A stretch of DNA of 64,000 bases from a virus, in the IMG/VR virus record IMGVR_UViG_3300025707_000004; one strand, given 5' to 3'. This document shows positions 4,021-54,219 of the stretch, piece by piece (the first letter of the stretch is position 1; every line of letters begins with the position of its first letter). The notes under the pieces were generated by a model. That model worked only from the letters and a program-made list of their open reading frames with translations. It was not told the DNA's origin and made no database searches. Made by a program: the position numbers and the translations under genes.

Positions 4021-4755
4021 ATGTTGTCTGAAATCTCGGATGTGATTGCAGAGGTAACAAGCGTGGTGAACGCGGACGCGTACAACCGGGTAGCCCTCAA
4101 GGAGCTGAGCGAGGACGCTCTGGTGTACCTCGTCGGCCTTGGCACACGGGAGTTCCAGGAGGCACACAAGCTCACAGTCGACTCGCTGTGCGGCCCCATG
4201 ACCCGCTCGGTCATTGAGTCGCTGGTAGGCGGTATCGCACCTGAAGCGGTCGTCCCGTCTGCTGTCGAGGTCCCCGAGTCGGCGTTCCCTACACTCTTGT
4301 CTAGGGACGTGGTCAAGCGGACCTACGGCGACTTCGAGTACAAGGAGAACCCCGCCCAAAAGGGCGGCATCATCATCTCGAAGAGTTGGTCGTATGCCAA
4401 TATCGTCAAGGTAGACCTCCACATCGGTCGGCATGTCTGGCTGAACAAGAAGGTTGCAGTCGGGTTCGCTGACCTGTTCAGGGCCGCTTGCGCCGCCGGG
4501 GGCTACGTCCCCGAGCGGGTTGGCTCTTGGGTCCCGCGCCACATGATGTGGAATCCGACGAAGCCGCTGTCCAGGCATTCCTGGGGCATCGCGGTCGACT
4601 TCGACGCACGGCTCAACGGGTACGGGAAGACTGACACCATGCTGCGGAAGCACATGGGCTTTGTCGAAACCTTCGAGCAAGCCGGCTGGGCGTGGGGCGG
4701 TCGGTGGAGCACGCCGGACGACATGCACATGGAGTATTCGGGGGTCTGGAAGTAA
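4021..4755 (+). CDS. M15-family zinc peptidase (putative endolysin)
   Basis: SRHSWGIAVDFD and WGGRWSTPDDMHME motifs (His/Asp/His zinc ligands of peptidase M15). Confidence 0.85.
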   Translation: MLSEISDVIAEVTSVVNADAYNRVALKELSEDALVYLVGLGTREFQEAHKLTVDSLCGPMTRSVIESLVGGIAPEAVVPSAVEVPESAFPTLLSRDVVKRTYGDFEYKENPAQKGGIIISKSWSYANIVKVDLHIGRHVWLNKKVAVGFADLFRAACAAGGYVPERVGSWVPRHMMWNPTKPLSRHSWGIAVDFDARLNGYGKTDTMLRKHMGFVETFEQAGWAWGGRWSTPDDMHMEYSGVWK

Positions 4756-5279
4756 TGGGGGCACGACCTGACGGGTGGGCAAAGCTATCTCTGGAGGCGC
4801 GCTTCCGGCATCGAGCAGCCCCCGGTAACAACCCCGGAGACTGCTGGACCTGGGAGGGTGGCCACGACACCAAGGGTTATGGCCGACTCAGCTTCAGGGG
4901 TAAGACGTACAAGGCGCACCGCTTGGCCTTCGAGTTCGGCAACGGGCGCAAGCCCGGGAAGCTCTTCGTCGGCCACGCTTGTGACAACCCCGGTTGCGTG
5001 AACCCGGACCACCTGTGGTTGGGTACTCCCGCGGACAACATGAGTGACCGTGACGCCAAGAAGCGTACGGCCTGCGGCTCTGACATCTCCAACACGGTGA
5101 AGCTCACCGAAGCTGTCGTTCTAGCGATGCGCGCTGACTGGGCTGAGCATGGGTGGGGAAAGCCCGGGAGCTGCCCTGAAGGTAAGCTGAGTTACTCAGA
5201 GCTGGGTAGGCAGTACGGTGTCACGAATGTTCAGGCCCGCAACATCATCTTGCGTAGGAGTTGGGCTCATGTTGCGTAA
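4755..5279 (+). CDS. Free-standing HNH homing endonuclease
   Basis: CWTWEG..GYG, AHRLAF, HACDNPGCVNPDHL..T..DN motifs with a C-terminal HTH-like segment; TAATG start overlap. Confidence 0.9.
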   Translation: MGARPDGWAKLSLEARFRHRAAPGNNPGDCWTWEGGHDTKGYGRLSFRGKTYKAHRLAFEFGNGRKPGKLFVGHACDNPGCVNPDHLWLGTPADNMSDRDAKKRTACGSDISNTVKLTEAVVLAMRADWAEHGWGKPGSCPEGKLSYSELGRQYGVTNVQARNIILRRSWAHVA

Positions 5280-11526: not shown

Positions 11527-11556
11527 CTTATCCCTATAAAAGGTGCCATTTTTGCA
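11527..11556 (-). promoter_or_regulatory. Leftward promoter P1 (TGCAAA-N18-GATAAG)
   Basis: Same elements and spacing as P2 and P4. Confidence 0.7.
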
Positions 11557-11920: not shown

Positions 11921-12130
11921 CTAGCCCCGGTTGTTAATCGCTTCGATTCGAGCGGACAAGTCCGCGTTGTACGCTTCCGTCCGGACCTTGGAGCGGTCCG
12001 AGATGAGCTTGGTCAGCTCCTTCACTCGCTCCACTCCGCCCGGCCTCGGGTTCTCCAGGATGTCCCAGATTTCCTGGAACCAAGGACACTTCTTCGGGTC
12101 AATGAAATCCATGTAATCCTCCTTGTTCAT
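11921..12130 (-). CDS. Small hypothetical protein, probably leaderless
   Basis: ATG lies 4 nt downstream of the P2 GATAAG element. Confidence 0.7.
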   Translation of the reverse strand: MNKEDYMDFIDPKKCPWFQEIWDILENPRPGGVERVKELTKLISDRSKVRTEAYNADLSARIEAINNRG

Positions 12131-12134
12131 AGTT

Positions 12135-12164
12135 CTTATCCCTTAAAGGGGTACCCGTTTTGCA
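12135..12164 (-). promoter_or_regulatory. Leftward promoter P2 (TGCAAA-N18-GATAAG)
   Basis: Matches P1 and P4; a palindrome copy lies just upstream of the -35 element. Confidence 0.7.
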
Positions 12165-12167
12165 CGT

Positions 12168-12182
12168 TATTAGCGGCTAATA
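12168..12182. repeat. Palindrome copy 4, TATTAGCGGCTAATA
   Basis: Intergenic, between the ncRNA 3' end and P2. Confidence 0.95.
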
Positions 12183-12191
12183 ATAGGGGTA

Positions 12192-13042
12192 AGAAAAGGG
12201 TGAGAATTACCCCCTTTCGCGTACAGCCTTTGAGCCCCTTTTCAGGGCCCTATCCACTGGGTCTCCCCAGTAGCCATACAATGCCGGTAGAGCCGACCGA
12301 AGCCGGGTTTACTACCATTAGCGGATACGTCTACTCAGCAGTGTCCCCTCAGAATAGGTTTGCGGCCCACTCCTACGGCTCTTCAACTGACACCCTTAGC
12401 CTTGCGAGCTTTAGGTGCGTCCGTTCCCCATGGAGGGCAGACGATTAGGCATCTTTCGACAGTACCCGGGTAAGGGCTGATTGCAGCTTCGCGTGAAATG
12501 CGTAGTCCGGCTCCTAACCGGTTTTTCTCCTAGAGATGGCGCCTTACCAGCGGGCCCATGGCTTTTGACCATAGGGAACTCCCACACCATCTCGTGACAT
12601 TCTCGGGTCAGTCACCCGATTTATCGGTTCTTCAAGGGCTGCCGGTTTCCCGACTAAAGAACTCACACCCTATCGAACTTCGTACGACCTGCCTGGAGCT
12701 GCCTCCTCACAGATTGTTCACGTACGCTATCTGTTACCCGAGCACTTGTGTTGGATTTGGATGCATGGCAGCCGGGGTACCAGCCCAGCTTCCGCGACCA
12801 CGGATTTCTCCGCCCGGTCACTTTATCCCGCCGCCGCGGGGCCACCACTCCTGCACAATTCTCCACCGGCTCTTCACCAGCGACCCCTCACGAGGGCAGA
12901 CTCAGACTTGTATAGATGGGCCGACTACTCGGTGGTCCAACCCGGAGCGGGCCAAACCTTTCCCCGCGTCACCGCGAGTTATCCTGACGATTCCATACAA
13001 CCAGAAGTTCCCTGAACAGCCGAAGCTATACGTGTCCCTTCA
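12192..13042 (-). ncRNA. ~850-nt highly structured ncRNA, GOLLD-like
   Basis: No codon-biased ORF; has its own promoter (P3) and a 3' hairpin. Many minus-strand stem-loops capped by GNRA/UUCG: CGCG-GUGA-CGCG, GUCGG-GAAA-CCGGC, CUGGG-GAGA-CCCAG, CCGGC-UUCG-GUCGG. The family assignment is from recall only. Confidence 0.7.
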
Positions 13043-13047
13043 TTGTC

Positions 13048-13076
13048 TTTATACCCAGACATGCGCGGTTTTTGCA
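13048..13076 (-). promoter_or_regulatory. Leftward promoter P3 (TGCAAA-N17-TATAAA) driving the ncRNA
   Basis: Same -35 element as P1, P2 and P4; near-canonical -10. Confidence 0.7.
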
Positions 13077-13085
13077 GGGTAAGAA

Positions 13086-13110
13086 GAAGCGCCCCAGGAG
13101 GGGGCGCTTC
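13086..13110 (-). terminator. Intrinsic terminator
   Basis: Perfect 10-bp stem GAAGCGCCCC/GGGGCGCTTC followed by TTCTT on the minus strand. Confidence 0.75.
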
Positions 13111-13120
13111 GGGCCGGGGA

Positions 13121-13318
13121 CTAGCCCAGACCGGTACCGCGTTCGTGGATGGGAATGGTTGCTTCGTGTACCCAGTTCCCCTCGTCCTCGTACCCGAGCT
13201 GGAACAGCAGCTCGGAGAGGGGGTGCGCCCAAAGGTTGTGGGGGGTCCACTGAAAGCGGGTGGGGAGAGCCGTGCAGAAGTGCTGCATGGACTTGGAGAG
13301 GTGCTTGGCGTCCAACAT
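13121..13318 (-). CDS. Small His-rich hypothetical protein (HNLWAHPL motif)
   Basis: Lies between P4 and the terminator; GAAGG RBS; start adjusted to MLDAK. Confidence 0.6.
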   Translation of the reverse strand: MLDAKHLSKSMQHFCTALPTRFQWTPHNLWAHPLSELLFQLGYEDEGNWVHEATIPIHERGTGLG

Positions 13319-13358: not shown

Positions 13359-13388
13359 CCTATCTCAAAAACCAATGCCCGTTTTGCA
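13359..13388 (-). promoter_or_regulatory. Leftward promoter P4 (TGCAAA-N18-GATAGG)
   Basis: Matches P1 and P2 in sequence and spacing. Confidence 0.65.
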
Positions 13389-13394
13389 ACGAGG

Positions 13395-13751
13395 TCAGTG
13401 GACCGCGTTTACCCCGAGCACGCTCTTGGCCATGCGGTTGGCCACGCGCGAACTCAGCGCAGCGCGGGCATCCCGAACAGCATTGAGCGCGGCTTGGTTT
13501 TCCGGGCACGCGTACGGACCCGACTGGAACCCGATCAACCGGTCCTCGATGATGGCGAGCAGGGCGTCGTCGAAGACGCCGGGGGTCGATCCCTCCACCC
13601 CACGCGGGCCGTGCTGGAACTGGACGTAGCAGACGTCGTCAGGCCCGCCGTACTGAATGGCGTAGCTGTGACTGGCGTTCCCCGCTTCCGGGTCACGCTC
13701 GTCGAGCGCGGCCACGTTGATGGGGGCATGGACAGCGATGCTGTGCGGCAT
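13395..13751 (-). CDS. tad1: Tad1-like anti-Thoeris signal-sponge protein
   Basis: FQHGPR..GVFDDALLAIIEDRLIGFQSGPYACPENQAAL...R..NR...VLG.N matches the Tad1 family pattern as recalled; GAGGAG RBS; 118 aa. Confidence 0.8.
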   Translation of the reverse strand: MPHSIAVHAPINVAALDERDPEAGNASHSYAIQYGGPDDVCYVQFQHGPRGVEGSTPGVFDDALLAIIEDRLIGFQSGPYACPENQAALNAVRDARAALSSRVANRMAKSVLGVNAVH

Positions 13752-14895: not shown

Positions 14896-15603
14896 TTACT
14901 GCTCCCTACCCTGATAGGTCCTGAAGGCGTACACAGCTAGTAGGAGGGCGTCGGCGAGCCCGTCGTCGGATGCCTTTATGAGGCAGTCAGGAAACAACGC
15001 CTGCGCCTGGGCGACGTGGGAGTGTTTCTTGTCTCGCTGGGCCTTGGCCTTGGCAGCCTTCTCACGCTTATCGAAGGCTTTGTCCTCCTCGCCGGCTTTC
15101 TGCGTGAGCGAGACCGACGCTGCGGTTGAGCACCCCATAGCCCGCTCCCACTTGGGGCCAGAGACCTCCTCGTACGGGATGCACAGTGTGGCGCAGATGC
15201 CCTCCCACAGGCCCCAGCCTTTGCCGATTTGGACGAGGCGCTCAGGGCCTTCACCCTTCCTCCCACGCTGCTTCTCGACCATGGCCAGAACGGCGCGGTC
15301 GTCTTGCTGCATGTAGGCCGCCAGGGCGACCTCGCTCCACGTGTAGACCTGCTCGAATTCCTCCTCCGGCATGTCCGGGTTTTTGACGGCGTCCAGGAGG
15401 TCGGTGTAGGTATGGAGCAGTCGGAGAGGCGCGTCCCGCTCCCGCCACAACGCGGCGAAGGGGAGCAGTAGCGCAGCCATCTGGGCCGGTAGGTAATTCT
15501 TCCCGGCCGTGGGGACATTATTAGCGACTAATACTTGCGCGCCGTCTGCCACGACCGCGATTGCGCCGCTCTTCCCGGGGTCGATGCCTACCGTGATAAT
15601 CAC
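14896..15603 (-). CDS. RuvC-like Holliday junction resolvase
   Basis: VGIDPGKSGAIA, MVEKQ and DGLADALLLA acidic motifs. Confidence 0.8.
   Translation of the reverse strand: MIITVGIDPGKSGAIAVVADGAQVLVANNVPTAGKNYLPAQMAALLLPFAALWRERDAPLRLLHTYTDLLDAVKNPDMPEEEFEQVYTWSEVALAAYMQQDDRAVLAMVEKQRGRKGEGPERLVQIGKGWGLWEGICATLCIPYEEVSGPKWERAMGCSTAASVSLTQKAGEEDKAFDKREKAAKAKAQRDKKHSHVAQAQALFPDCLIKASDDGLADALLLAVYAFRTYQGREQ
15519..15533. repeat. Palindrome copy 5, TATTAGCGACTAATA
   Basis: Inside the RuvC gene; encodes VLVANN. Confidence 0.95.
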
Positions 15604-16211
15604 TCGTCGTCCTCCACCTCTTCTCGGGCCACCTGGACCCGCGCCTTTTGCATCATGCTCCGCGGCGCCTTCCCCGTCGCTGGGGTAGAGTCGGAGCGCG
15701 GCGGGTTCGAGTAGTTCGGCCGGTCGGACCTAGTACGCCCGGTCTGTGTGCCTGAGGAATTCCAGGAACGACCGCTGGGGCCGTTCCGCTCGTAGAGTTC
15801 TCGGTCGAGGCGCTGCATGCGCTTGCTTGTATCTTTTCTGAGTGCCTCCAGGGCTCGCTTGAGGCCGTCCGAGCGAAGCATGTCCAGTCGGGCATGGACC
15901 ACGTGTCCATCCGACCGAACCGCTGCATCGCGTAGGGCGGCGTTTGTGAGGGTCTTGTCCTTGTTGGTGCGGAGTAGCGCCCCAGCTTCTGACACCTTCA
16001 GACGCTCTTCAGAGACACCAGCAATTCCCAACGTGGCCGCAAGCTTTGTTGAGAGTTGGTCATGGTGCCGCATGAGCACGTCGTAGTACGCCTTGACCTC
16101 GACGAGGCTCAGGTCGTTGATGGCGTCGGGGAGAGCAGGGCTGGGGTACTGCGCGATTTGTTCGCTGATCCACCGAGCGGCTTCGCTGAACGGGTCTACG
16201 GGTTCACTCAT
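15600..16211 (-). CDS. Helical protein, possibly UvsY-like recombination mediator
   Basis: Coiled-coil composition within the recombination cluster; function is a weak inference. Confidence 0.35.
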   Translation of the reverse strand: MSEPVDPFSEAARWISEQIAQYPSPALPDAINDLSLVEVKAYYDVLMRHHDQLSTKLAATLGIAGVSEERLKVSEAGALLRTNKDKTLTNAALRDAAVRSDGHVVHARLDMLRSDGLKRALEALRKDTSKRMQRLDRELYERNGPSGRSWNSSGTQTGRTRSDRPNYSNPPRSDSTPATGKAPRSMMQKARVQVAREEVEDDE

Positions 16212-17391
16212 CTTTGGCTAGGTCCGGCTTACACGTGTAGAGAAATTTGCAGCGTGAACAGATGAACGAGTTCGGTTCCTGGTCAGGAATCACTCCGCGT
16301 CGCAAGTGGGCTTCGATGTTGTGAATCGTGGTGGCGATGCGCGCCAGCACGTCCGCCCTGAAGTGGACGGGAAACTCTCGGAATTCTCCGTTGTCTCGGC
16401 ACACGTACAGGATGACTCCGTATGGAATATCCAGAGCCAGCATGTAGCAGTGCAGTTGGCGAATGTGGCTAGCCATCGGGGCCTTGAGCCCCTTGAAGAT
16501 GTTCTTGCTCACACTCTTGATTTCCACCACCAGCTGCCCGAACACGCCATCGCAGTGTCCGTAGAGCCCCAGCGGGGGGTAGCTGATTTCGACCTCAGGA
16601 TGGAAACGCTGTCCATGAACTCCGGTCACCTTGGAGAGGCGGCCTTGGATGGCGTCGTGGATTGCGTCCCCGAGGTCGAAGACGTTGACTCCGAAGCCGT
16701 GCGTCCTGGGGACGGGCCTCGGGGTAACCGCAAGCCGCTCGTAAGCCAGGGCGCGGTTGCATCCCTCAAGGCTCACAGCGGAAGGGTGGTAGCACCCAAT
16801 CTTGCGGTCGTAGGTCTTGGCGTCGTCTCCCCGGGAGAACCGGATGTAGGAGACGAGAGAGTAGTCCGCGTTGGCGGCGGGCTTCCCCGTGTGGCTGAGG
16901 CAGGCCGAGGCGTAGTACCCCTCCTGGGGCAGTGTGGGCGGCTCGTAGCCCCTCGGCTCGTACAGCTCAATTTCGACGGAGGAGGTCATAAGGCTCTCCG
17001 CCAAAATGTCCCGGACCGCGAGCCACGGGAGCGTGCCCAAACCGGTGCCAAGCGCCGGGACAGCGAGCCGCTTGATGTCTCGCTCCTCCGTTAGCTGGCG
17101 CAACTCTTCCCCTAGGCTGACTACCCAGTCTAGGTTCGACGGGTTACGCCACTCGGCCTTGGTCGCGGCGTTTACAATGAGCCTGTTCGACGCGGGGTCC
17201 TCGAAGGTGAAGAGCTTACCGGGGTGGAGGTCGCCGTCCTGGCACACCTTGGCGTACGCTGTGAAGTTCTCGGGAAAGCGCTTCTTGAACTGCAGTGCCA
17301 GCCCGGCACCCATGACCCCCTCACAGTTTACTGGGTTTACCAGGGCGTCCGCGGTGCTTGCGAAGATGTCCCCGGTGCACATCTGAACCAT
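16204..17391 (-). CDS. DarG-like macrodomain fused to a Cas4-like PD-(D/E)xK exonuclease
   Basis: N-terminus GDIF..ALVNPVNCEGVMGAGLALQFK..VPALGTGLG; C-terminus GHCDG..VVEIKS..QLHCYM..CSRCKFLYTC; TGATG start overlap. Confidence 0.85.
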   Translation of the reverse strand: MVQMCTGDIFASTADALVNPVNCEGVMGAGLALQFKKRFPENFTAYAKVCQDGDLHPGKLFTFEDPASNRLIVNAATKAEWRNPSNLDWVVSLGEELRQLTEERDIKRLAVPALGTGLGTLPWLAVRDILAESLMTSSVEIELYEPRGYEPPTLPQEGYYASACLSHTGKPAANADYSLVSYIRFSRGDDAKTYDRKIGCYHPSAVSLEGCNRALAYERLAVTPRPVPRTHGFGVNVFDLGDAIHDAIQGRLSKVTGVHGQRFHPEVEISYPPLGLYGHCDGVFGQLVVEIKSVSKNIFKGLKAPMASHIRQLHCYMLALDIPYGVILYVCRDNGEFREFPVHFRADVLARIATTIHNIEAHLRRGVIPDQEPNSFICSRCKFLYTCKPDLAKDE

Positions 17392-18164
17392 CAGAAGTTG
17401 CCTTTCGCCAGTTCCAGAAAGTCCAGGTAGGGCACACCCAGCCAGACCCGCTTGGCGAGAATCAGCTTGAGCCAAGTGGTCTCGTTCAGCTTCAGGCCGG
17501 TCGCCCTGTGCAGCCGCCAAACCACCTGCGAGGAAACGTCGACCTCGTGGAAGTTCATGCCCGCCAAATCGTCGTCGAGTTCATCCGCGGGGAGGAACAC
17601 GATGCTGTCCTGACCCTCGAAGGCGAAGATGTAGGCGGGCACCTTGCCGATGCTGAGCGCCTGACGTCTATGGAACTCAAGGTCCCTCAGGTCGACATCC
17701 CGGTAGTCGGCCGACTGCGACCCCGGCTCGGAGGTCTTGTGCTCGGCCAGGATGTCCGCGGTGAGGATGTCCCGCTTATAGCCGGGGAGCGACCCGCTCG
17801 CAGGCTGGACCTTGCCACCCAGGTCCTTGGCTACATCCGCCTCACAGCGTTGGCTGAATCGATGTTTGTATGCCACGAGGAACTCCAGGCAGTCTTCCAG
17901 GGTGTTGGTGTGCTCGGCCGAGTCGAAGATGATGGAAGAGCTGGTATCCCAGCTCACCACCGCGAGCATCTCAGCTATCCGGGGTATCGCGTCATGCGGA
18001 ACTTGGTGGAGCACGGATAGCCCGCTCTCCAAGTGTGTGATGTTGTGCAGGTTGCCGTTGGTCGGCGTGTTTGAGAGGGAAGGATGGAACGCCAATCCGC
18101 GTACCAAGGGCCTGCCCGTTACCTGCTTCGTTGTACCCTTGGTGGTACGAATGAGCACCTTCAC
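17391..18164 (-). CDS. PD-(D/E)xK nuclease (Hjc-like resolvase domain)
   Basis: EADVAKDLGG..PASGS...KRDI....LAEHK motif. Confidence 0.6.
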   Translation of the reverse strand: MKVLIRTTKGTTKQVTGRPLVRGLAFHPSLSNTPTNGNLHNITHLESGLSVLHQVPHDAIPRIAEMLAVVSWDTSSSIIFDSAEHTNTLEDCLEFLVAYKHRFSQRCEADVAKDLGGKVQPASGSLPGYKRDILTADILAEHKTSEPGSQSADYRDVDLRDLEFHRRQALSIGKVPAYIFAFEGQDSIVFLPADELDDDLAGMNFHEVDVSSQVVWRLHRATGLKLNETTWLKLILAKRVWLGVPYLDFLELAKGNF

Positions 18165-21141: not shown

Positions 21142-23940
21142 TTACTTGCACCCAGCCCAGTCGGCCGCGTCTTTTCCGGTGGTGTCTAGGGGGACCAGCA
21201 GGTCATATGGCAACGAGTGTTCCATATGGTGCTGGAGGCGTCCAACAAAACGGGGATTACGAGCCGCGGAGATTGGGGCCTCCCCGACGATTTCATCGTG
21301 GACCTGTAGGAGCATGCGGTAGCCCATCTCGTAGAGCCAGTCATCCTCGTAGGTCTTAATCATGGCCATCTTGGTGACGTCCGCCGCGGTCCCCTGGATG
21401 GGAGTGTTCTTGGCGCGGCGTTCCGCCTGGGCGATATCCCCGCGTAGGTGGGACCAGATGCCCGGGATTTGCCGCCGCCGACCGAGAATGGTGGTGACTA
21501 CCCCGGACTCTTCGGCTAAACCAATGACCCGACGAAGGTGGTCCTGCACCCCGGGCATCTGCTGGAAGTACGTGCGGATGTAGTCCTTGGCGACCTCCAC
21601 CTTGACCCGCAGCTCTCGGCTGAGCTTCTGCGGACCCATGCCGTAAATCAGGCCGAAGTTGATGGCCTTGGCCGCCTTCCGGGCCGTGAGGCACTCTATC
21701 TCTCGGGGACTCAGCGGCTCGTACGGGTGCCCGGCCTTTTTCAGTTCGTCGATCTCGTCGTCCCGTGCCCGAGCTGCCATGATTTCGTCGTAAGGCAGCT
21801 TGAACATGAGCGCGGCGCAGGAGCAGTGGACATCCTGCCCACTACGGATAGCCTGGATGAGATTGGGCTCCTGGCTGAAGTGCGCGACGATGCGCATCTC
21901 CAGTTGGCTGTTCTTTACGAAGACCCCTGCAGCCAGCGCGTAGTTTCTGTGCGGCGCTACTCCGATGCTCCACACCTGCTGGTTTACTTGCAGCTGCCGG
22001 ACAGCTACGACCTTGTGGTTTCCTCCCTGTCTTTTGTGGTCGAAGTAACAGGTACGGGAGCAGTACTTCTTCTTCGTAGAAGCGAATGTCTCTATCGGTT
22101 GGTCACAGAACAGGCAGGCGGTGTACACCCGCCCCCTACGGTCGCCATGACGGGGATTGTTTTTCCCGTTGTAGCCCCCACGGTCGGCGATGCTCTGACG
22201 GATACCCGACTGCATGGCTGCACGCGTCTCAGGGTCCCGCCATTGACGCGTACAAGACTCCTTCGCGTGCTCGGAGAGGTGCAGGCGGGCGTCCAGGTAC
22301 TCCAGGTTATCGGGGTGGTTGTTTAGGCTGTCTCCGTCCTTGTGGTGCGTGTGGTAGCCCTCAGGGCGGGCGCCCATCGCCCAGGCCGCTACCTCTGTGT
22401 GCGTCTTGGAATAAACGACCGCTTGATGGGCGTAGAGATGCTCGTAATTTCGGTTCGTCCCCCCGTACGCCCTCCGCAGAGGAAGCAGGCGCATTCCAGG
22501 GATTAGGTCCTGCGCCTCTACGCCAATGGGGTCTGCCACGTACTTCTCAGGACAAACCATGAACTTGTGCTCGCCCGTGCAGACAATCCGCTCTCCGTTG
22601 TCCAGCTCAATCTCAACGACGGGCTCAACGCCGACAGCGTGGTGCTCATCTACGGTACCTACTACAGGAACCCGCCTGTCAGGGTCGTAGGAGAAGACAG
22701 GGTCCCCCACCTGCAAAGATTCAATCGGCCGAGGGCCGAGCGGGGTGTCAACCAGGGTGCCGGTTGCGAAGCAGTAATCCCTAGCAATTAGTACTTTTTC
22801 TTCGCCCGCGATGTAGGCGAAGCGGATGTACCCAGGTTGATTTTGTAAATTCGGATCCGCGCTCGATAGGCGGCCGGTACGAGCACCAGCTTGCTTGTAC
22901 GTGGTGTGGATGCGCCCGCGGTGCTCCAACTTGAGCAGCCCACGCACGTAGGTGGCTTGCTTCTTCTTCAGGTCGCGGTAGGCGAGCAACTTGTCCGCGT
23001 AGACACAACCATCAGAAGCGATGCGCGACAACCACTTCTGCGGGAGCTGTGGGGCACCTTTCTCGGTGTACGAGGGGGGGTTGTACCCCAGGTCCCCAAA
23101 GAACAGCTCAATCATCTGCGGGTTTGAGTTGAGGTTGATGCCCACCTTCTTGGTCTTCTTCACGAACCACCGCATGAGGGCAATCATCTTGCGGTCGAGT
23201 TCAGGCGCGATTGCGATGAGCCGGTGCTTGTCCAGCCCGATGCCGTTGCTCTCGCACTCGAAGAGGACCCGGGTGAAGGGGACCTCGGTGTGCCGGAAGT
23301 AGTCCCACAGGGTGGGGTACTCCTCGACACCAGTATTAGTCGCTAATAGTTTCTTCTGGAGCGCGACTGCCAGGGCGAAGGTTGAGTAGGCGTCGAGCCC
23401 CGCGTAGTTCGCCACGACAGGCTCATTGGCGGGGTCCAGGAATATCTCGTGCAGCTTCCGGGTGCGCATCTGCGCGCCGAAGGTGGCCTTGAAGTCCACC
23501 ATAACGATGCCGAGCATCTCCTTGGCTGCGTACTTCAGTGTGTGCGGCCGGTCGTCGTAATCCAGCGCGTGCATAATCATGGCGTCGAAGACGCGGTAGG
23601 TCGTGCGGTCGCAGTTGCGGTAGATGTCGATGCCGGCGTTCCGCAGCATCCAGGTGTCGAAGTTGGCGTTCCACATGAGCAGCTGTAGCTCAGGGTCTTC
23701 TAGGTACTCCGTGAAGTAGGAGAACGCCTCGGGCCATATCGCGTAGCGGTTCGGCCCGGTAGAAAGGCTCATGATGAGCGCGTAGTCGCGTTGCCGGCTC
23801 AAGCCGGTGGTCTCAGTGTCAATCGCGACTACGCGAGAGCGCTTGCCGCCCTTCCCAATGCGCAGCTGGGCGAGGGCGACTTCGGCCTCCTGCCGCGTCT
23901 TGATGAGCATGGTAGGAGGAAGGACGGCGAACTTACCCAA
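21142..23940 (-). CDS. polA: Family A DNA polymerase with 3'-5' exonuclease, intein-containing
   Basis: IDTETTG, TGRLSS.DPNLQN, DY|SQLEMR, RKAAKAINFGLIYG, NTPIQGTAAD and VHDEI motifs. Confidence 0.95.
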   Translation of the reverse strand: MGKFAVLPPTMLIKTRQEAEVALAQLRIGKGGKRSRVVAIDTETTGLSRQRDYALIMSLSTGPNRYAIWPEAFSYFTEYLEDPELQLLMWNANFDTWMLRNAGIDIYRNCDRTTYRVFDAMIMHALDYDDRPHTLKYAAKEMLGIVMVDFKATFGAQMRTRKLHEIFLDPANEPVVANYAGLDAYSTFALAVALQKKLLATNTGVEEYPTLWDYFRHTEVPFTRVLFECESNGIGLDKHRLIAIAPELDRKMIALMRWFVKKTKKVGINLNSNPQMIELFFGDLGYNPPSYTEKGAPQLPQKWLSRIASDGCVYADKLLAYRDLKKKQATYVRGLLKLEHRGRIHTTYKQAGARTGRLSSADPNLQNQPGYIRFAYIAGEEKVLIARDYCFATGTLVDTPLGPRPIESLQVGDPVFSYDPDRRVPVVGTVDEHHAVGVEPVVEIELDNGERIVCTGEHKFMVCPEKYVADPIGVEAQDLIPGMRLLPLRRAYGGTNRNYEHLYAHQAVVYSKTHTEVAAWAMGARPEGYHTHHKDGDSLNNHPDNLEYLDARLHLSEHAKESCTRQWRDPETRAAMQSGIRQSIADRGGYNGKNNPRHGDRRGRVYTACLFCDQPIETFASTKKKYCSRTCYFDHKRQGGNHKVVAVRQLQVNQQVWSIGVAPHRNYALAAGVFVKNSQLEMRIVAHFSQEPNLIQAIRSGQDVHCSCAALMFKLPYDEIMAARARDDEIDELKKAGHPYEPLSPREIECLTARKAAKAINFGLIYGMGPQKLSRELRVKVEVAKDYIRTYFQQMPGVQDHLRRVIGLAEESGVVTTILGRRRQIPGIWSHLRGDIAQAERRAKNTPIQGTAADVTKMAMIKTYEDDWLYEMGYRMLLQVHDEIVGEAPISAARNPRFVGRLQHHMEHSLPYDLLVPLDTTGKDAADWAGCK
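21910..22773 (-). mobile_element. Intein (288 aa) with HNH endonuclease, in PolA motif A
   Basis: Begins CFATGTLV; block B CTGEHKF; HHKDGDSLNNHPDNL; ends VFVKN|S; removal restores DYSQLEMR. Confidence 0.9.
23334..23348. repeat. Palindrome copy 6, TATTAGTCGCTAATA
   Basis: Inside polA; encodes LLATN. Confidence 0.95.
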
Positions 23941-36459: not shown

Positions 36460-36517
36460 CAGGCCGTGCGCTGCTAGTATGGGCGAAGGTACGCCCCAAA
36501 ACAGAGGCTTTTCCCCG

Positions 36518-39500
36518 ATGGCGGATATCCATACCCTGGACCCAGAGAGGGCGATGCAAGCCCTCAAAGACGGCACAATCCAGGTTCTCAAAGACACCCT
36601 CCCGATTGAGGGGCGGACGCGCATCTTGCGCGCTACAAACGTCTATGCTGGGCCCAACGTCCACATCGACGACATACACGCTCAAAAGCGGGCCAGGGTC
36701 CGCAATCGGACATGGGCGGTCCCCATCCTCGCGGACATGGAGCTGGTGGACAAAGCCTCCGGCAAAGTGGTGTCGAAAACCAAGGGCGTGCGGCTGCTGA
36801 ATCTGCCGCACTACACCCGCCGGTACTCGTTCATCGTGGACGGGACGGAGTACCAAGCAGACAACCAGTGGCGCCTCAAGGCCGGCGCGTACACACGTAT
36901 GAAGGCTAACGGCGGACTGGAGACCCAGTTCAACCTGAGCAAGGGCCGCGGGTTCCGTGTGAGCTTCGACCCCAAGAAGCGCCAGTTCCTGGCCACCCAC
37001 GGGACGACCAACACGCCCCTCGTGCCCCTTCTTCAGACACTGGGTATCAGCGCCGAGGAGATGGAGACGGCCTGGGGGCCGGAGGTCTACCAGACCGCCG
37101 CACGCCTTCAGCGCAAAGGGCAGATGGCGAAGCTCGCCAAGACCCTGAACCCCCGGTCCGAAGCGACCACTCCCGAGGAGGTCGAGGATGTTGTACGTGA
37201 GTCGTTCGCGGCGACCGAGCTTCGCCCGGACACCACCAGCGTCACCTTGGGCAAGGGCTTCACGACCGTCACCGGCGAGGCGCTGCTATTAGCGGCTAAT
37301 AAGCTGCTCGGCGTTTCTCGTGGGACGGCCGAGGTGGACAACCGTGACTCCCTCCGGTTCAAGGAGCTGTGGACGGTGGCCGACCACCTCCCGGAGCGCA
37401 TCAAGAACTCGCGTCGTCGGGTGGAGCGGAAGATCCGCAACAACCTGGACCGCCGTGACGACATCCGCAAGATTGTGACCCCTGACGTTTTCAACGTCCC
37501 GGTCAAGTCGTTCTTCACCTCGACCTCCCTGTCTCAGCGCCCCTCACAGCTGAACCCGGTCGACATGATTGGCGGGCACCTCAAAGCCACCCTGATGGGC
37601 ACCGGCGGTATCAGCACGGAGAACGCGGTCAGTCATTCTGCCAAGATGCTGGACTCTAGCCAGATGGGCTTCACTGACCCGTTTCACAGCCCGGAGGGGA
37701 CCCGAAGTGGTATCACCACGCACCTGACGCTGGGTGTCTCCAAGCGAGGCAACGAGCCGGTCATCAAGGTGTGGGACGTGAAGAACAGCAAGTGGGCGGA
37801 TGTCTCCCCCACGGAGCTGCACGGGAAGACGCTGGCCTTTCCCGACCAGTACGACACGGGAGACGGAAAGACCTTCAAGCCTCGGAAAGACCTCATCACG
37901 GTCATCCGCGGGGGTGAGGGTGACCCCACCAATGTGAAAGCCAACGAGGTGGACTATGTTCTGCGATCTCCCAAGGCGATGTTCTCATTCACTGCGAACC
38001 TCATACCGTTCTTGCCCTCTGACCAAGCGAACCGTGCGGGAATGGCTGCGCGTCACATGGAGCAGACGGTTCCGCTGAAGAACCCCGAGGAGCCCCTTCT
38101 TCAGGTGGCTTCTGGCTCGGACCAGCCGGCATGGGACACCTGGGAGAAGATTCTCGGCCAAATGCAGTCACACGCCAGCCCGGTGTCCGGGACGGTGAAG
38201 TCGGTCGAAGCCGAGCGCATTGTGGTGGCAGGGGACGACGGCAAGAAGCACGTTGTCCAGCTCTACGATAACTACCCCCTCAACGACTCCAAGGCGTTCG
38301 TTACCAGCAAGCCCCTGGTGCAGAAGGGCGACGAGGTCAAGAAGGACGACGTCATCGCTGACACTAGCTTCACCAAGGGCGGCGTCCTCTCGATGGGCAC
38401 CAATCTGCGCGTGGGCTATCTGGCGTACAAGGGGCTCAACTACGAGGACGGCATCACCATTAGTGAGACGGCCGCCAAGAAGCTCACCAGTGAGCACCTG
38501 CACAAGCCGCGTGTGTACCTGGACACCGGGATGATGATGGGGCTGAAGAAGTTCCGTGCGAACTTCCCCGGGGTTGTCTCTGACGCGAACGCCGCCAAGC
38601 TCGACGAGGATGGGGTCATCAAGCGTGGCGAAATCGTCCGCCCTGGTGACGTGATTGCCACAGTGCTCAAGGAGGCGGACCCTTCGGCAGAGCAAATCAT
38701 GCTCAAGGGCATCCACAAGAGCTTGGCCAAGCCCTACAGGGACCGCTCGCTCACGTGGAACAAGCCGTACACGGGTGTGGTCACGGAGGTCGTGCGTAAC
38801 GGCAAAGAGGTCGTCGCTTACGTCAAGACGGCAGAAGAGGCCGACATCGGCGACAAGCTGACCTCACGCCATGGGAACAAAGGCGTCGTGGTTGCCATCC
38901 TCCCGGACGAGGAGATGCCCCGGGATGGCGATGGTGCCCCGCTGGAGATTGTGCTGAACCCCTCGGGTGTTCCTGGGCGCATCAATCCTGGGCAGGTCCT
39001 GGAGAACGCCATCACGCTCGCAGCGGTCGAGGACGGGAAGCCCTACGCGGTCTCGAACTTCGATGGCGACGAGGGGCACCGCATCAGCGTGGGCGACGTG
39101 TCCACCAAGATCGTCCAGGTCAAGGGGCACTACCGGACAATCAAGTCCGGGAAGGGCTCGAAGCGCATCTGGATTGAACCCTACGAGTACGAGACCGGTT
39201 ACAAGGGGCTCATTGACCAAATCCTGGAGAAGAAGGGCCTGTCGGAGACGACGGAGCTGTTCGACCCGGAGACGGGGAAGAGCCTGGGCCCAGTCATGAC
39301 GGGGCACCAGTACATCCTCAAGCAGGAACACCAAGTCGACAAGAAGCTGTCTGCCCGCGCGCACGGCTACGGGCATGCTTACAACGCCAACATGGTGCCG
39401 CGAGGTACCTACGGTGGTAACGACGGCGCTCAGCGGTACGGCGAGCTGGGCCTCTACGCGATGATTGCCCACGGCGCGGTCAACAACATCCGCGACGCTC

Positions 39501-42500
39501 TGTCGTGGAAGTGCTTCCCGTATCACGAGAAGGTGCTGACCGACCAAGGCGAAATCGAGATTGGAAAGATTGTCACCAATCGCCTCCCGGTCAAGGTGCT
39601 GACGTGGTCGGACGAAGAAGGGCTGTGCTACCGGCCCATCAAGAATTACTGGAGGCGTAACGGGGAGCAGGACCGGCTTGTGCGTGTTACGGCGCACCGC
39701 AGGCGGAGCGGCGAGTTTGCCTTCGTGAAAGGGACGGTTCTCTGTACCGAGGAGCACCAGTTCTACGTTCGGCGCGAGGGGCAGCTGGAGAAGGTGTGGG
39801 CGAAAGACCTCCGCCCTGGGGTGGATGCCATACTCACCTGGGGAAACGAGCTTTCGGAGGGCCAGCATGACCTTCTGCTGGGCTCACTCCTGGGGGATGG
39901 TTACATGGCGCAGAAGGAGACTTCGCGGTTTCCTTACTTCCAGGAACGCCATTCGGTGAAGCAGCGGGAGTATCTCCAGTTCAAGGCGGATGCACTGAGT
40001 TCGTTCACGCACCGAGAGCTGCGGGAATACACCGCGGGGTACCAAGGCTTCAGCTGTGGGCAGCAGATGGTGGAGTGGTCCAGCTTCGCTACGCCTGAGT
40101 TCCTGAAATTGCATCGTCAGTTTTATGCCTCTGGGGAGAGGCGCTTCCCACAGGAGGTGTGGGACCTGCTGACGTTGAGGTCATTGGCAATTTGGTTCCA
40201 GGACGATGGCTGTGGGTATCGTTCGCTGAGTAATGGCGGCGGTGTGCAGGCGGGTCTTGCGGTCTACTCGATGAACTCGGATGAGCGGAAGTCTGCCATC
40301 GCGGCTATCGAGCGGCTGACGGAGGTGCACTTCAACGACAACGTCGACCACCTCAAGAAGCACGGAGTGGCCGCAGAGCACTTCTTGAGCAAGCTGGGTC
40401 CGTACCTTCACCCTAGTTTGTCTTACAAGACCTGCGATGTGGTGGCCCCTATTGGGCAGAAGCTGGTTGAGTTTTCTGCTCCTGGTGCCCCGGGATTGGT
40501 GGAGACCCCGGTTGACGCAGTTGAGCCTGCTGGGTGCTTGGGAGACCTGCCGGAATGGCGGGGGAAGTACTTGTTCAATTTGGAGGTGGAGGATACGCAC
40601 AGGTACTTCGTTCGCGGCTTCCTGGTTGGGAACTCAGACCGGTCCCAGGACGAAATCTGGACGGCCATTCAGACAGGGCAGATGCTTCCCGCGCCCCGCC
40701 CGTCGTTTGCGTACGAGAAGTTTCTCGGGTACCTCAACGGGCTCGGAGTCAACGTCGAGAAGCACGGCAACGAGCTTGTCGTGCTCCCCATGACCGACAA
40801 GCAGATTACTGAGATGTCGTCCGGTGCGTTGGAGGACGGCGGCAAGGTGGTCCGTGGTAAGGACCTGCGCCCGGAGAAGGGCGGCCTCTTCGATGAGGAA
40901 ATCACAGGCGGCGTTGGCGGGAAGAACTGGAGCCACTTGGTCCTGGCTGAGTCCATGCCCAACCCCCTCTTTGAGAAGGGTATTCGGTCGCTGCTCGGGC
41001 TCACTGGTAAGCAGTACGACGGCATCCTCGCGGGGAAGGTCTCGCTGGACAAGGATGGCAAGGTCACAGAGGAGGGCGGGGCTACCGGGCCCGCTGCCCT
41101 TGCAGCGGCACTGTCCGGCATCGAAGTCGACAAGGAGCTGACCGCGGCCAAGGAAGAAATCAAGACCGCTCGCCGCAGCAGCCTCGACAAGGTCAACAAG
41201 AGAATCAAGTACCTCCTGATGCTCAACAAGACGGGGCTGTCAGCTAGAGAGGCGTACGTCCTGGAGAACCTTCCGGTCGTTCCGCCGCAGTTCCGCCCCA
41301 TTTCTGTGATGGAGGCGGGTGACCTCAACGTGGACGGACTCAACCTGCTCTACCGGGATGTCTCGTTGCTGAGTGACCAGCTGAAGGCAGCCAAAGGGGT
41401 TCTGCCGGACGCGGAGCTGTTCAAGCTCCGCACTGAACTGTACAGCGCCGTCGAAGCACTCATGGGTACCGCCACGGCCTCTGACCAGGGTTTGACGACT
41501 GATGGGCAGCCCAGGCCCCCTGGCATCCTCAACATCCTCTCAGGGCGCACCTCGCCCAAGGAGAGCTACTTCCACAAGGCCATCCTCGACCGCAAGCAGG
41601 ACCTGACCATGCGGTCGGTCATCGTCCCGGATATGAGCCTGCACCTGGACGAGATGGGCCTCCCGAAGAAGGGGGCGATGAAAATCTTCCGGCCCTTCGT
41701 CGTCAAGGAGATGGTGGCCATGGGCTACACACCTCTCCAGGCGCGGGAAGAAATCGAGAAGGACACGTCGCTGGCGAACAAGGCGCTCGCGGTCGTGGCC
41801 TCCAAGCGCCCGGTCCTCTTCAAGCGAGACCCGGTGCTGCACAAGTTCGGCATCATGGCGTTCAAGGCGCGCATCATCGACGACGAGAAGGCCATCCATA
41901 TCCACCCGTTGGTGGTGGGGGGCTTCAACGCTGACTTCGACGGGGACGCGATGGGGGTGTTCGTGCCTATCTCGCAGGGCGCGGTCGACGAGGCGTACAA
42001 GATGATGCCCAGCAAGAACCTCTTCAACCCCTCGACCGGGAAGGTCATGTACCAACCCTCGCTGGAGGGGCAGCTGGGGCTGTTCATGCTCACGCAGTTC
42101 GGGAAGCGCTCCCGGGAGAAGTTCGCGAGCAACAAGGACGCCATCGACGCGGCCAACAAGGGCGACATCGCCATGACCGATGTGGTCACAGTGGACGGGA
42201 AGAAGACCACCGCCGGGCGATTGAAGATTGCGGGTGCCCTTCCTGCGAGTCTGCGAACCGCGGAACTGCTGGAGGATGCGGACTTCACCCTGAATAATAA
42301 GAGCCTCCAAGGTGTGCTGCGGGACCTAGCCACCGACCATCCTGCGCAGTTCGCTAACTCTGTAGACAAGCTGAAGGACCTCGGCTTCGGGTTCGCCTAC
42401 AGCAGCGGGTTCAGTTTTGATTCTGACGACTTCAATACCCTGAGCACGATTCGGGATAAGCACCTGAAGGTCGCGCAGGCACGCGAGAAGGTGGTCCGCG

Positions 42501-43954
42501 GGGCGGGCGGCACACGGAAAGAGCAGGACGGCAAGGTTGTCGCGCTGTACCAAAAGGCGACGGCTGACATCAAAAACGACGCGGAGAAGTACCTGCAGGC
42601 TACTGGGAACCGGCTGTACACCATGTACAAGGCGGGCGTGAAGCCGGGCTGGTCCCAGCTCCAGCAGCTCATCATCGCGCCCCTCCTGATGGAGAACGCG
42701 GACGGACGTATCATCCCTGTTCCTGTGACTAAGTCCTACGCAGAAGGGCTCTCCACCGCGGGCTACTGGACGGCGTCGTCCGGTGCGCGGAAGGGGCTTA
42801 TCGAGAAGGTGCAGTCCGTGAGTGAGCCGGGAGCGCTCTCCAAGCAGATTGTGAACACGGCCATCCCACAGGTCATCACCGTCGAGGACTGCGGAACGAC
42901 CACGGGCATCCACATGAAGATTGGGGACAGCGACCTTGTAGACCGCGTTCTCGTCAAGGGAGTCAAGGCGAAGGGGCAGTCGTTCCGGGCAGGAAGTCTC
43001 ATCACGCCGCAGATGGTTACAAGTCTCAAGGCCGCGCGTGTGGACGGTCTGGTTGTCCGGTCGCCGACGAAGTGTGAGTCCCACCAGGGGATGTGCGCGA
43101 AGTGCTACGGCGCTATGGACGGGGGTGGCCCCGTTGCGCTCGGGACAAACATCGGGGTCATCGCTGGTCAGGCTATCGGTGAGGTCGGTACGCAGCTGAG
43201 TATGCGGGTGTTCCACACAGGCGGCGCTTCCGGTGCGGGCGGTAGCTCTGTGGTGGGTGGCATCGAACGCGTGAAGCAGCTCTTGAAGATTCCTCAGACC
43301 CTGCCGGGGAAGGCCACGTTGGCTCAGGTCCCCGGGCGCGTGGGCAAGATAGCGAAGAGCGCGGTGGGCGGTTACGACATCACTGTCGGCGGCGAGGAGC
43401 ACTACATACCGCACGGTCGGACACTCCAGTTCAAGGTGGGCGCTACGGTCAAGAAGGGTGATGCCCTCAGCTCGGGGCCGGTTGACCCCCGAGAGCTATT
43501 GACGCTGACCAACCTGGACCGGGTGCAGCGTTACCTGACCGACGAGGTCCACGGGGTGTATGCGGAGGCGGGGGTCAAGAAGCGAAACGTCGAGGTCGTC
43601 GTCCGCGCGCTTACGAACTTGGGTGTTGTAGAAGACCCCGGTGAAGTGGGCGACGAGGAGGGCATCATCCGTAATGACTACGTGAGTTTGACGAAGGTGA
43701 ACGCCCTCAACCGAGCCAACAAGGGGAAGGAGACCGTCAAGGTCGTCCCCGTTCTCCGCGGCGTCGAGACCCTGGCCCTGGACCAGACCACGGACTGGAT
43801 TGCTCGACTGCAGTACCGGAAGCTCAAGGAGACCTTCACCCGCGCGGCGAACGAGGGTTGGAAGTCGGACATCCATGGGGTCCACCCGGCTCCCGGCATT
43901 GCGTACACAGCTGAGTTCGGTAAGCCCGACTCAGGCTCCAAGAGCCCGTACTAA
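36518..43954 (+). CDS. rpoBC: Single-chain fused beta-beta' DNA-directed RNA polymerase, intein-containing
   Basis: Beta motifs SPEG, DQANRA.M, GDKLTSRHGNKGVV, GAQRYGE; beta' motifs LPVVPPQFRP, KRDPVLH, NADFDGD (41927-41947), GARKGL, GEVGTQLSMRVFHTGG. Confidence 0.95.
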   Translation: MADIHTLDPERAMQALKDGTIQVLKDTLPIEGRTRILRATNVYAGPNVHIDDIHAQKRARVRNRTWAVPILADMELVDKASGKVVSKTKGVRLLNLPHYTRRYSFIVDGTEYQADNQWRLKAGAYTRMKANGGLETQFNLSKGRGFRVSFDPKKRQFLATHGTTNTPLVPLLQTLGISAEEMETAWGPEVYQTAARLQRKGQMAKLAKTLNPRSEATTPEEVEDVVRESFAATELRPDTTSVTLGKGFTTVTGEALLLAANKLLGVSRGTAEVDNRDSLRFKELWTVADHLPERIKNSRRRVERKIRNNLDRRDDIRKIVTPDVFNVPVKSFFTSTSLSQRPSQLNPVDMIGGHLKATLMGTGGISTENAVSHSAKMLDSSQMGFTDPFHSPEGTRSGITTHLTLGVSKRGNEPVIKVWDVKNSKWADVSPTELHGKTLAFPDQYDTGDGKTFKPRKDLITVIRGGEGDPTNVKANEVDYVLRSPKAMFSFTANLIPFLPSDQANRAGMAARHMEQTVPLKNPEEPLLQVASGSDQPAWDTWEKILGQMQSHASPVSGTVKSVEAERIVVAGDDGKKHVVQLYDNYPLNDSKAFVTSKPLVQKGDEVKKDDVIADTSFTKGGVLSMGTNLRVGYLAYKGLNYEDGITISETAAKKLTSEHLHKPRVYLDTGMMMGLKKFRANFPGVVSDANAAKLDEDGVIKRGEIVRPGDVIATVLKEADPSAEQIMLKGIHKSLAKPYRDRSLTWNKPYTGVVTEVVRNGKEVVAYVKTAEEADIGDKLTSRHGNKGVVVAILPDEEMPRDGDGAPLEIVLNPSGVPGRINPGQVLENAITLAAVEDGKPYAVSNFDGDEGHRISVGDVSTKIVQVKGHYRTIKSGKGSKRIWIEPYEYETGYKGLIDQILEKKGLSETTELFDPETGKSLGPVMTGHQYILKQEHQVDKKLSARAHGYGHAYNANMVPRGTYGGNDGAQRYGELGLYAMIAHGAVNNIRDALSWKCFPYHEKVLTDQGEIEIGKIVTNRLPVKVLTWSDEEGLCYRPIKNYWRRNGEQDRLVRVTAHRRRSGEFAFVKGTVLCTEEHQFYVRREGQLEKVWAKDLRPGVDAILTWGNELSEGQHDLLLGSLLGDGYMAQKETSRFPYFQERHSVKQREYLQFKADALSSFTHRELREYTAGYQGFSCGQQMVEWSSFATPEFLKLHRQFYASGERRFPQEVWDLLTLRSLAIWFQDDGCGYRSLSNGGGVQAGLAVYSMNSDERKSAIAAIERLTEVHFNDNVDHLKKHGVAAEHFLSKLGPYLHPSLSYKTCDVVAPIGQKLVEFSAPGAPGLVETPVDAVEPAGCLGDLPEWRGKYLFNLEVEDTHRYFVRGFLVGNSDRSQDEIWTAIQTGQMLPAPRPSFAYEKFLGYLNGLGVNVEKHGNELVVLPMTDKQITEMSSGALEDGGKVVRGKDLRPEKGGLFDEEITGGVGGKNWSHLVLAESMPNPLFEKGIRSLLGLTGKQYDGILAGKVSLDKDGKVTEEGGATGPAALAAALSGIEVDKELTAAKEEIKTARRSSLDKVNKRIKYLLMLNKTGLSAREAYVLENLPVVPPQFRPISVMEAGDLNVDGLNLLYRDVSLLSDQLKAAKGVLPDAELFKLRTELYSAVEALMGTATASDQGLTTDGQPRPPGILNILSGRTSPKESYFHKAILDRKQDLTMRSVIVPDMSLHLDEMGLPKKGAMKIFRPFVVKEMVAMGYTPLQAREEIEKDTSLANKALAVVASKRPVLFKRDPVLHKFGIMAFKARIIDDEKAIHIHPLVVGGFNADFDGDAMGVFVPISQGAVDEAYKMMPSKNLFNPSTGKVMYQPSLEGQLGLFMLTQFGKRSREKFASNKDAIDAANKGDIAMTDVVTVDGKKTTAGRLKIAGALPASLRTAELLEDADFTLNNKSLQGVLRDLATDHPAQFANSVDKLKDLGFGFAYSSGFSFDSDDFNTLSTIRDKHLKVAQAREKVVRGAGGTRKEQDGKVVALYQKATADIKNDAEKYLQATGNRLYTMYKAGVKPGWSQLQQLIIAPLLMENADGRIIPVPVTKSYAEGLSTAGYWTASSGARKGLIEKVQSVSEPGALSKQIVNTAIPQVITVEDCGTTTGIHMKIGDSDLVDRVLVKGVKAKGQSFRAGSLITPQMVTSLKAARVDGLVVRSPTKCESHQGMCAKCYGAMDGGGPVALGTNIGVIAGQAIGEVGTQLSMRVFHTGGASGAGGSSVVGGIERVKQLLKIPQTLPGKATLAQVPGRVGKIAKSAVGGYDITVGGEEHYIPHGRTLQFKVGATVKKGDALSSGPVDPRELLTLTNLDRVQRYLTDEVHGVYAEAGVKKRNVEVVVRALTNLGVVEDPGEVGDEEGIIRNDYVSLTKVNALNRANKGKETVKVVPVLRGVETLALDQTTDWIARLQYRKLKETFTRAANEGWKSDIHGVHPAPGIAYTAEFGKPDSGSKSPY
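37287..37301. repeat. Palindrome copy 9, TATTAGCGGCTAATA
   Basis: Inside the RNAP gene; encodes LLAAN. Confidence 0.95.
39512..40633 (+). mobile_element. Intein (374 aa) with LAGLIDADG endonuclease, in the RNAP beta C-terminal region
   Basis: Begins CFPYHEKV; CTEEHQF; LLGSLLGDG and LAIWFQDDG; ends FLVGN|S; removal restores LSWKSD (cf. bacterial LTVKSD). Confidence 0.9.
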
Positions 43955-54011: not shown

Positions 54012-54219
54012 TGAGGCGCACTACCCCGTTCTTCTTCGCATAGACCGTGTAGTTCGGTAGGACTTCGCGAAGCGCGGCCTTGAAGCCCGCATTATTAGCG
54101 ACTAATAAAAGGGGGTCGACCTGTAGGACGAAGCCACCTTCGGTAGTCTCAATCTTGTGGACCAGCCCACTGAGGGCGCGATCCACGTGGGCAAGGTCAT
54201 CTGGTATTGTCGAGGACAT
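53860..54219 (-). CDS. Hypothetical protein, antisense island
   Basis: Palindrome copy 12 reads LLVANN in this frame, as it does in bona fide genes. Confidence 0.55.
   Translation of the reverse strand: MSSTIPDDLAHVDRALSGLVHKIETTEGGFVLQVDPLLLVANNAGFKAALREVLPNYTVYAKKNGVVRLIKRKQNTRRNRAGSRLKLEQVGEAFETQAVEVQEQGDDGAADAVDFFAPD
54093..54107. repeat. Palindrome copy 12, TATTAGCGACTAATA
   Basis: ~110 bp upstream of the terminase start. Confidence 0.95.

Follow-up and report, generated by a model that had tools for sequence, protein, structure and literature searches.

A divergent GOLLD-family RNA in a tRNA-free marine phage record, missed at the Rfam gathering score

We analyzed a window of 64,000 nucleotides, which corresponds to the reverse strand of bases 76325-140324 of an IMG/VR virus record of 142,974 bp with an estimated completeness of 79%. 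All runs containing the stretch of interest carry marine or seawater metagenome labels. The record has a G+C content of ~62%; the value is 55.6% in the kilobase that holds the stretch and 56% in the RNA itself. Phage genes in the record include a terminase, a family A DNA polymerase, a DnaB-like helicase, a RecA-like protein, an SNF2 helicase and a fused RpoB-RpoC-like polymerase, and the DnaB-like helicase shares just 23-25% identity with actinobacteriophage helicases in tblastn comparisons. The RpoB-like and RpoC-like domains are joined in a single ORF of 2491 amino acids (36479-43954, plus strand) together with a LAGLIDADG insert, the family A DNA polymerase (21142-23940, minus strand) contains an intein with an HNH domain, and a LAGLIDADG domain is also present in a terminase-like ORF (54080-57088, plus strand). 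There are no tRNA genes in the window, as judged by ARAGORN, nor in the entire 143-kb record, in line with the initial annotation of this DNA, which had reported no adjacent tRNAs. That annotation had also placed the stretch near anti-defense genes, and we indeed find a Tad1-like gene next to it (13395-13751, minus strand; E = 1.4e-13 to PDB 8kbh). Two further genes lie 2-4 kb upstream of the RNA and on the same strand, one encoding a Holliday-junction-resolvase-like protein (14896-15603, minus strand) and the other a phosphatase/macro-like domain fused to a Cas4-like exonuclease (16204-17520, minus strand). The features of the locus are listed below, together with their conservation in L015, a metagenome contig carrying the same RNA; R1 denotes a covariance model described further on.

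13086-13110, minus strand: predicted terminator hairpin of the preceding gene (ORF ending at 13121), 10 bp and G+C-rich, -21 kcal/mol, z -4.5, U-rich tail; conserved in L015
13048-13076, minus strand: predicted promoter of the RNA, TGCAAA (13071-13076), 17-nt spacer, TATAAA (13048-13053); 96% identical in L015
12192-13040, minus strand: very probable GOLLD-family non-coding RNA, ~849 nt, based on the Rfam match, the R1 match, RNA contigs and a fold z of -4.5
12595-13040, minus strand: variable 5' domain, R1 match at 12861-13013; 86% identical in L015
12532-12594, minus strand: first helix of the 3' domain with a UCAAAAG loop, model positions 1-64; 100% identical in L015
12470-12531, minus strand: short, tRNA-free linker, aligning to an unpaired low-confidence part of the model; negative in ARAGORN
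12197-12469, minus strand: conserved core of the 3' domain with CGAAAG..CUAAU, CUCGCAAGG, GAGUAG, GUGGAUA and the final loop GUAAUUCUCA; 94.6% identical in L015
12193-12218, minus strand: last GOLLD helix and U-rich run, -10.9 kcal/mol, z -2.4, model positions 400-416
12135-12164, minus strand: next copy of the promoter motif, predicted to serve the downstream 69-aa ORF (11921-12130)
13360-13388, 12135-12164 and 11533-11556, minus strand: copies of the promoter motif in the window, from a pattern search
Record positions 80, 896, 8835, 13734, 14415, 23332, 29890 and 30289: copies of the motif outside the window, from the same type of search

The stretch had been called GOLLD-like from its length and its 3' segment. 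A scan of the window with Rfam at the default gathering score lists no family. With reporting by E-value, however, the entire GOLLD model (RF02032, positions 1-416) aligns to 12197-12594 on the minus strand with 137.3 bits and E = 8e-38, which bears out the initial assignment from one end of the model to the other. A search of the whole record returns this segment as the sole GOLLD match. The default scan is silent because 137.3 bits lie under the RF02032 gathering score of 150 bits, a shortfall of 12.7 bits. The gathering score is an annotation threshold rather than a biological boundary, and at the level of sequence and structure comparison an E-value of 8e-38 still shows homology. No other Rfam family rises above noise; ROOL, introns, RNase P and tmRNA, which had been named as families to check, are absent even at E-values up to 10. 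The GOLLD family was reportedly described by Weinberg and colleagues in 2009.

We compared the match to 11 IMG/VR loci (L002-L012) fetched by motif pattern. Ten of these score 157-214 bits; in the remaining locus, L007, the motif lies at the locus end and no GOLLD match is found. The motifs CGAAAG, CUAAU, CUCGCAAGG, GAGUAG, GUGGAU and UCUCA are invariant and occur in this order in 10/10 aligned GOLLDs including the window RNA, three of them being motifs that had served to fetch the comparison set. An independent RNAalifold run on a plain MAFFT alignment recovered several family helices, and 31 of its 38 pairs show pair-preserving double changes between the window clade and the classical GOLLDs. 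The stretch itself has no blastn match among 50,697 phage records.

The helices of the 3'-domain model are formed in the window RNA with a handful of non-canonical pairs, one sub-hairpin being deleted and one helix extended. The first helix of the domain corresponds to P14 of the published numbering according to our own mapping, and the sub-hairpin that is absent relative to the model is P21b by our reading of the published structure (PMC12990946). The helix at 12285-12318 is extended by 21 nt. Together with the short linker, the deletion and the extension are the visible contributors to the score deficit. The linker region is longer in other GOLLDs and can hold a tRNA: in L002 (1856-1926) and L003 (1187-1258), both of which lie in long tRNA arrays, a tRNA gene is nested in the linker and within the Rfam match. 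The L010 linker contains a T-arm-like GGUUCGACUCC segment at ~4340-4400 (minus strand), for which neither ARAGORN nor Rfam calls a tRNA. A tRNA neighborhood, typical of GOLLD RNAs without being obligatory, is not found around the window RNA, and 6/10 classical GOLLD loci likewise have no tRNA in their fetched flanks. That our record and linker lack tRNAs, as do the flanks of these loci, speaks against a strict link between GOLLD and tRNAs.

We analyzed how such an RNA might be transcribed. The hairpin of the preceding gene, already noted in the initial annotation, forms a convincing intrinsic terminator as judged from its stem, folding energy and tail, and would insulate the RNA gene from upstream transcription. 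A promoter had been proposed as well. A simple scan with the sigma-70 consensus detects none, because the real motif departs from TTGACA; the promoter instead takes the form of a phage-specific element, and it is in this form that the proposal stands. The phage motif spans ~45 nt, consisting of TGCAAAAC, ~15 nt and GGGATAAGAACTATGAA, and occurs at at least 10 sites, all on one strand of the 143-kb record and before small genes. The promoter of the RNA at 13048-13076 is a variant of this recurrent motif. Either the sigma factor of the host or the polymerase encoded by the phage may recognize the motif. The motif often precedes a conserved GGCAATTACGCC-like leader. At the other end, the 3' hairpin described in the initial annotation is the family's last helix, and with the U-run that follows it this helix probably ends the transcript, acting as a weak terminator. 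Transcription would be expected to start ~7 nt past the -10 element, near 13040, and we thus place the 5' end of the RNA at ~13040-13030 and its 3' end at ~12192-12197. Of the bounds given initially, 12192-13076, the lower one agrees with this estimate, whereas the upper one takes in the promoter, the RNA proper covering ~12192-13040. A small A+U-rich hairpin (UUAUUAG / CUAAUAA) at 12167-12183 on the minus strand, between the 3' end of the RNA and the next promoter, has a folding energy no better than that of shuffled sequences; a string nearly identical to it, GCCGCTAATAA, lies ahead of the promoter copy at record position 23332.

A motif scan of metagenome contigs yielded L015 as the single relative of the locus, while the same kind of scan of genome contigs returned two unrelated Bacteroidota MAG loci. 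A search for relatives through the upstream 84-aa ORF retrieved only the window's own record, and a search for protein homologs of the downstream 69-aa ORF retrieved only that ORF; the neighbors are therefore of no use for fetching more relatives. L015 is 8.1 kb long, is syntenic with the window, contains no tRNA and carries the same RNA at 141.8 bits. The segment 13373-13753, which holds the Tad1-like gene, aligns to nothing in L015 (~5227-5244), although synteny is kept elsewhere on the contig; judged from this alignment, the gene resembles a cassette that was swapped or lost. The 3' domain of the window RNA is 94.6% identical to that of L015, compared with 86% for the 5' domain and 96% for the promoter. 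For the downstream ORF, identity amounts to 72% at the nucleotide and 59% at the amino-acid level, and the RNA is thus better conserved than this gene. Using the window's own minimum-free-energy (MFE) fold as reference and L015 as the one relative, we count 7 pair-preserving double changes, 5/7 of them in the 5' domain and all in local hairpins. Slid controls, in which pairing partners are moved by 1-3 positions, give 0-2. With a single relative, this covariation provides a modest but consistent indication of selection on structure. The long-range pairs of the MFE fold mostly fail in L015, which disrupts 9 of them and preserves 2, and a global MFE fold of the 5' domain was discarded on this ground.

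We also found related contigs in environmental transcript data. Ten seawater metatranscriptome runs contain part of the stretch, and we examined three of them along with one DNA run. In each of the three RNA runs there is a single L015-type contig, 798-833 nt long and 93-94% identical to our sequence, that covers 12235-13021/13030. An additional 14-25 bases of these contigs match the diverged 3' end of L015, so that they reach ~12210, a position inside the last helix. One RNA contig runs directly into Illumina adapter after 13030, which suggests that many fragments end there. Standard cDNA libraries usually lose ~10 nt at the 5' end. The DNA contig, by comparison, is 6.7 kb long, covers 12072-13110 and continues on both sides. 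The RNA contigs stem from a relative rather than from this exact phage, carry neither strand nor exact ends and may include DNA carried over into RNA libraries; they hint at, but do not prove, a discrete and abundant RNA of at least 810 nt in sea water whose ends lie within ~10-15 nt of those predicted.

We considered whether the locus might hold a decaying, functionless GOLLD remnant. Decay would explain why the score falls below the gathering cut-off and why one conserved sub-hairpin, P21b, is gone, and the RNA has no tRNA partners. On the other hand, the RNA is far better conserved than the flanking genes and its substitutions are compensatory, its promoter is intact and conserved, and its abundance sufficed for assembly from three metatranscriptomes. 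Loss of P21b is moreover shared with L010, which scores 180 bits, and with the cage-forming Streptococcus agalactiae GOLLD (PMC12990946). We thus regard a remnant as very improbable.

Also very improbable is that the RNA acts in cis on the downstream 69-aa gene, as a regulatory element or a long structured leader, a role that its position ~60 nt upstream and on the same strand might suggest. This gene has a full promoter copy of its own at 12135-12164, and the RNA is therefore not its leader. The RNA contigs stop at ~12210 where the DNA continues, and the RNA ends with the terminal helix of the family and a U-run. Its initial description as a stand-alone gene fits with its own promoter, the upstream terminator, the separate promoter of the next gene and RNA contigs that stop at the predicted ends.

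The possibility that the stretch codes for protein is close to refuted. There are ORFs of 59-174 amino acids within it, the largest on the plus strand (12558-13082, 174 aa), and small ones on the minus strand. In the internal ORFs, G+C stays flat from one codon position to the next (0.51-0.60), whereas GC3 reaches 0.75-0.84 in the genuine genes on either side, and none of the ORFs tested, the largest included, belongs to a Pfam or PHROG family. Indels whose lengths are not divisible by three disrupt these ORFs in L015, where the 174-aa one is spread over three frames and a 59-aa one is shifted after residue 22. The initial remark that the stretch lacks a codon-biased ORF is consistent with these findings. 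The minus-strand RNA as a whole folds with a z-score of -4.5; its 5' half taken by itself gives -1.6, against +0.5 for the plus strand of the same segment. Most hairpins that had been proposed from the minus-strand sequence are present as described: CGCG-GUGA-CGCG (12965-12976), GUCGG-GAAA-CCGGC (12641-12654), AGCU-CGCAA-GGCU (12398-12410), CCGGC-UUCG-GUCGG (12293-12306) and CUGGG-GAGA-CCCAG (12257-12270). Several contain U-G pairs that become A-C mismatches on the other strand, as had been pointed out, and in the hairpin at 12641-12654 a U-G wobble pairs on the minus strand only. The supposed GAAA hairpin at 12451-12460 has to be dropped, as it corresponds to a conserved, unpaired GAAAG junction in the family model.

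We investigated whether the variable 5' domain can be tied to GOLLD RNAs as well. By blastn, the 5' half of the window RNA has no similarity to the 5' halves of classical GOLLDs. A local-pair MAFFT alignment reveals junction motifs and GNRA-capped hairpins common to the 5' halves of the window RNA and of L002, L003, L009 and L012. To avoid circularity, we built covariance models R1, R2 and R3 solely from the 5' domains of these four classical loci, and ran them against both strands of the entire window and of nine other loci. A model from all ten classical 5' domains had been tried and given up, the MAFFT alignment being too noisy. The top match to R1 is the window RNA, at 12861-13013 on the minus strand, over the full length of the model and at the expected place and strand (36.2 bits, E = 3e-7); L015 comes next. 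R2, representing the middle third of the classical 5' domains, has no significant match, and R3, representing the last third, has its best match at the expected place yet with 8.4 bits and E = 0.47, in both cases with filters on or off. By these model searches, the GOLLD character of the 5' domain is demonstrable in its first third; the remaining ~290 nt have diverged, which is to be expected where a domain is variable. A new RNA class that merely resembles GOLLD, an alternative raised in the initial annotation and as improbable as a coding function, could be read from a score under the Rfam gathering score and from the ~two thirds of the 5' domain without a detectable match, but it is not supported given E = 8e-38 over the full model with all invariant motifs in order, the independent link of the 5' domain to classical GOLLDs through R1, and the variable 5' domain, which is itself a trait of the family (PMC12286853).

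These findings together indicate that 12192-13040 on the minus strand is, with high probability, a separately transcribed non-coding RNA gene of ~850 nt that belongs to the GOLLD family. The window RNA shares with other members the full 3'-domain match, the invariant motifs, the length and the orientation of its neighbors. It has the two-domain build, with a variable 5' domain of ~445 nt, a short linker and a conserved 3' domain of ~400 nt, and it is located in a phage, as seen from the IMG/VR virus record and its gene content. It differs in the missing P21b, the 21-nt helix extension, the short tRNA-free linker, the record without tRNAs and the score of 137 bits. The RNA is a divergent new copy of a known family that was missed by threshold-based annotation. 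The Rfam gathering score thus misses real full-length GOLLDs in G+C-rich marine phages, and surveys of the family are therefore incomplete. The overall picture of the family is unchanged, with a well-documented outlier added to it.

Few natural RNAs are known to form a closed cage in the absence of protein, and GOLLD is one of them. In the two solved GOLLD cages, 3' domains form rings, 5' domains form caps and the variable linker points inward, giving a hollow RNA-only shell (PMC12286853, PMC12990946). We compared our RNA to both. The env-38 GOLLD comes from a marine metagenome, is 833 nt long and assembles into a 14-mer (PDB 9MEE; PMC12286853). Its origin, its length and its domain split (~420 + 413 nt, versus ~445 + 400 nt here) resemble those of the window RNA, which retains the conserved 3'-domain loops. 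In contrast to our RNA, and compared by description, env-38 is found downstream of a Met-tRNA, and both its P21a and its P21b form kissing loops where the window RNA has one sub-hairpin. The S. agalactiae GOLLD of 700 nt (PDB 9L0R) lacks P21b, like the window RNA, yet forms a closed cage, in this case a 12-mer (PMC12990946); it is shorter, also lacks P9 and P11a-c, and has a low-G+C host. Among the classical GOLLDs L002-L012, all of which have the same 3' domain, L002, L003, L009 and L012 share ~150 nt of recognizable 5' structure with the window RNA and are nearest to it in the 5' domain. This group sits in tRNA arrays, whereas our RNA does not. L010, with 56% G+C and 180 bits, resembles the window RNA in lacking P21b. 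ROOL RNA, which forms octameric cages, is likewise a large, ornate, phage-associated and cage-forming RNA but is unrelated in sequence and fold, with no Rfam match here at E-values up to 10.

A similar cage is expected for the window RNA because the loops and junctions of its 3' domain are conserved and its 5' domain is of full size, and by analogy we consider cage assembly probable, though well short of certain. The RNA would be transcribed from a strong variant of the promoter that numerous small genes of this strand share, and would end at its own last helix and the U-run that follows. Many copies might then assemble into a closed, hollow, RNA-only shell, with 3' domains as rings, 5' domains as caps and the linker pointing inward. 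Since P21b is missing as in the 12-mer of S. agalactiae, the copy number is uncertain and may be 12 rather than 14. Without P21b and with a differently built 5' domain, the window RNA represents a natural test case for how secondary structure sets the copy number of the cage. Published ideas on the role of GOLLD include the holding of tRNAs or ribosomes.

It is conceivable, though we think it doubtful, that the window RNA and its L015 counterpart form a distinct GOLLD subtype. Such a subtype would be marked by the absence of P21b, the extended helix at 12285-12318 and a short tRNA-free linker, and would occur in tRNA-less phages that encode a fused beta-beta' RNA polymerase, being fired from the promoter class of a series of small genes, among them a Tad1-type counter-defense gene. 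If so, the GOLLD cage would act independently of phage tRNAs, and its place would be in a host-takeover or counter-defense program and not in tRNA handling; it might, for instance, be a shell sequestering a host factor. Irrespective of a subtype, the shared promoter class suggests, as a lead only, that the window RNA is co-expressed with genes such as the Tad1-like one. The promoter and the adjacency to this gene offer a testable hint to the timing of RNA synthesis.
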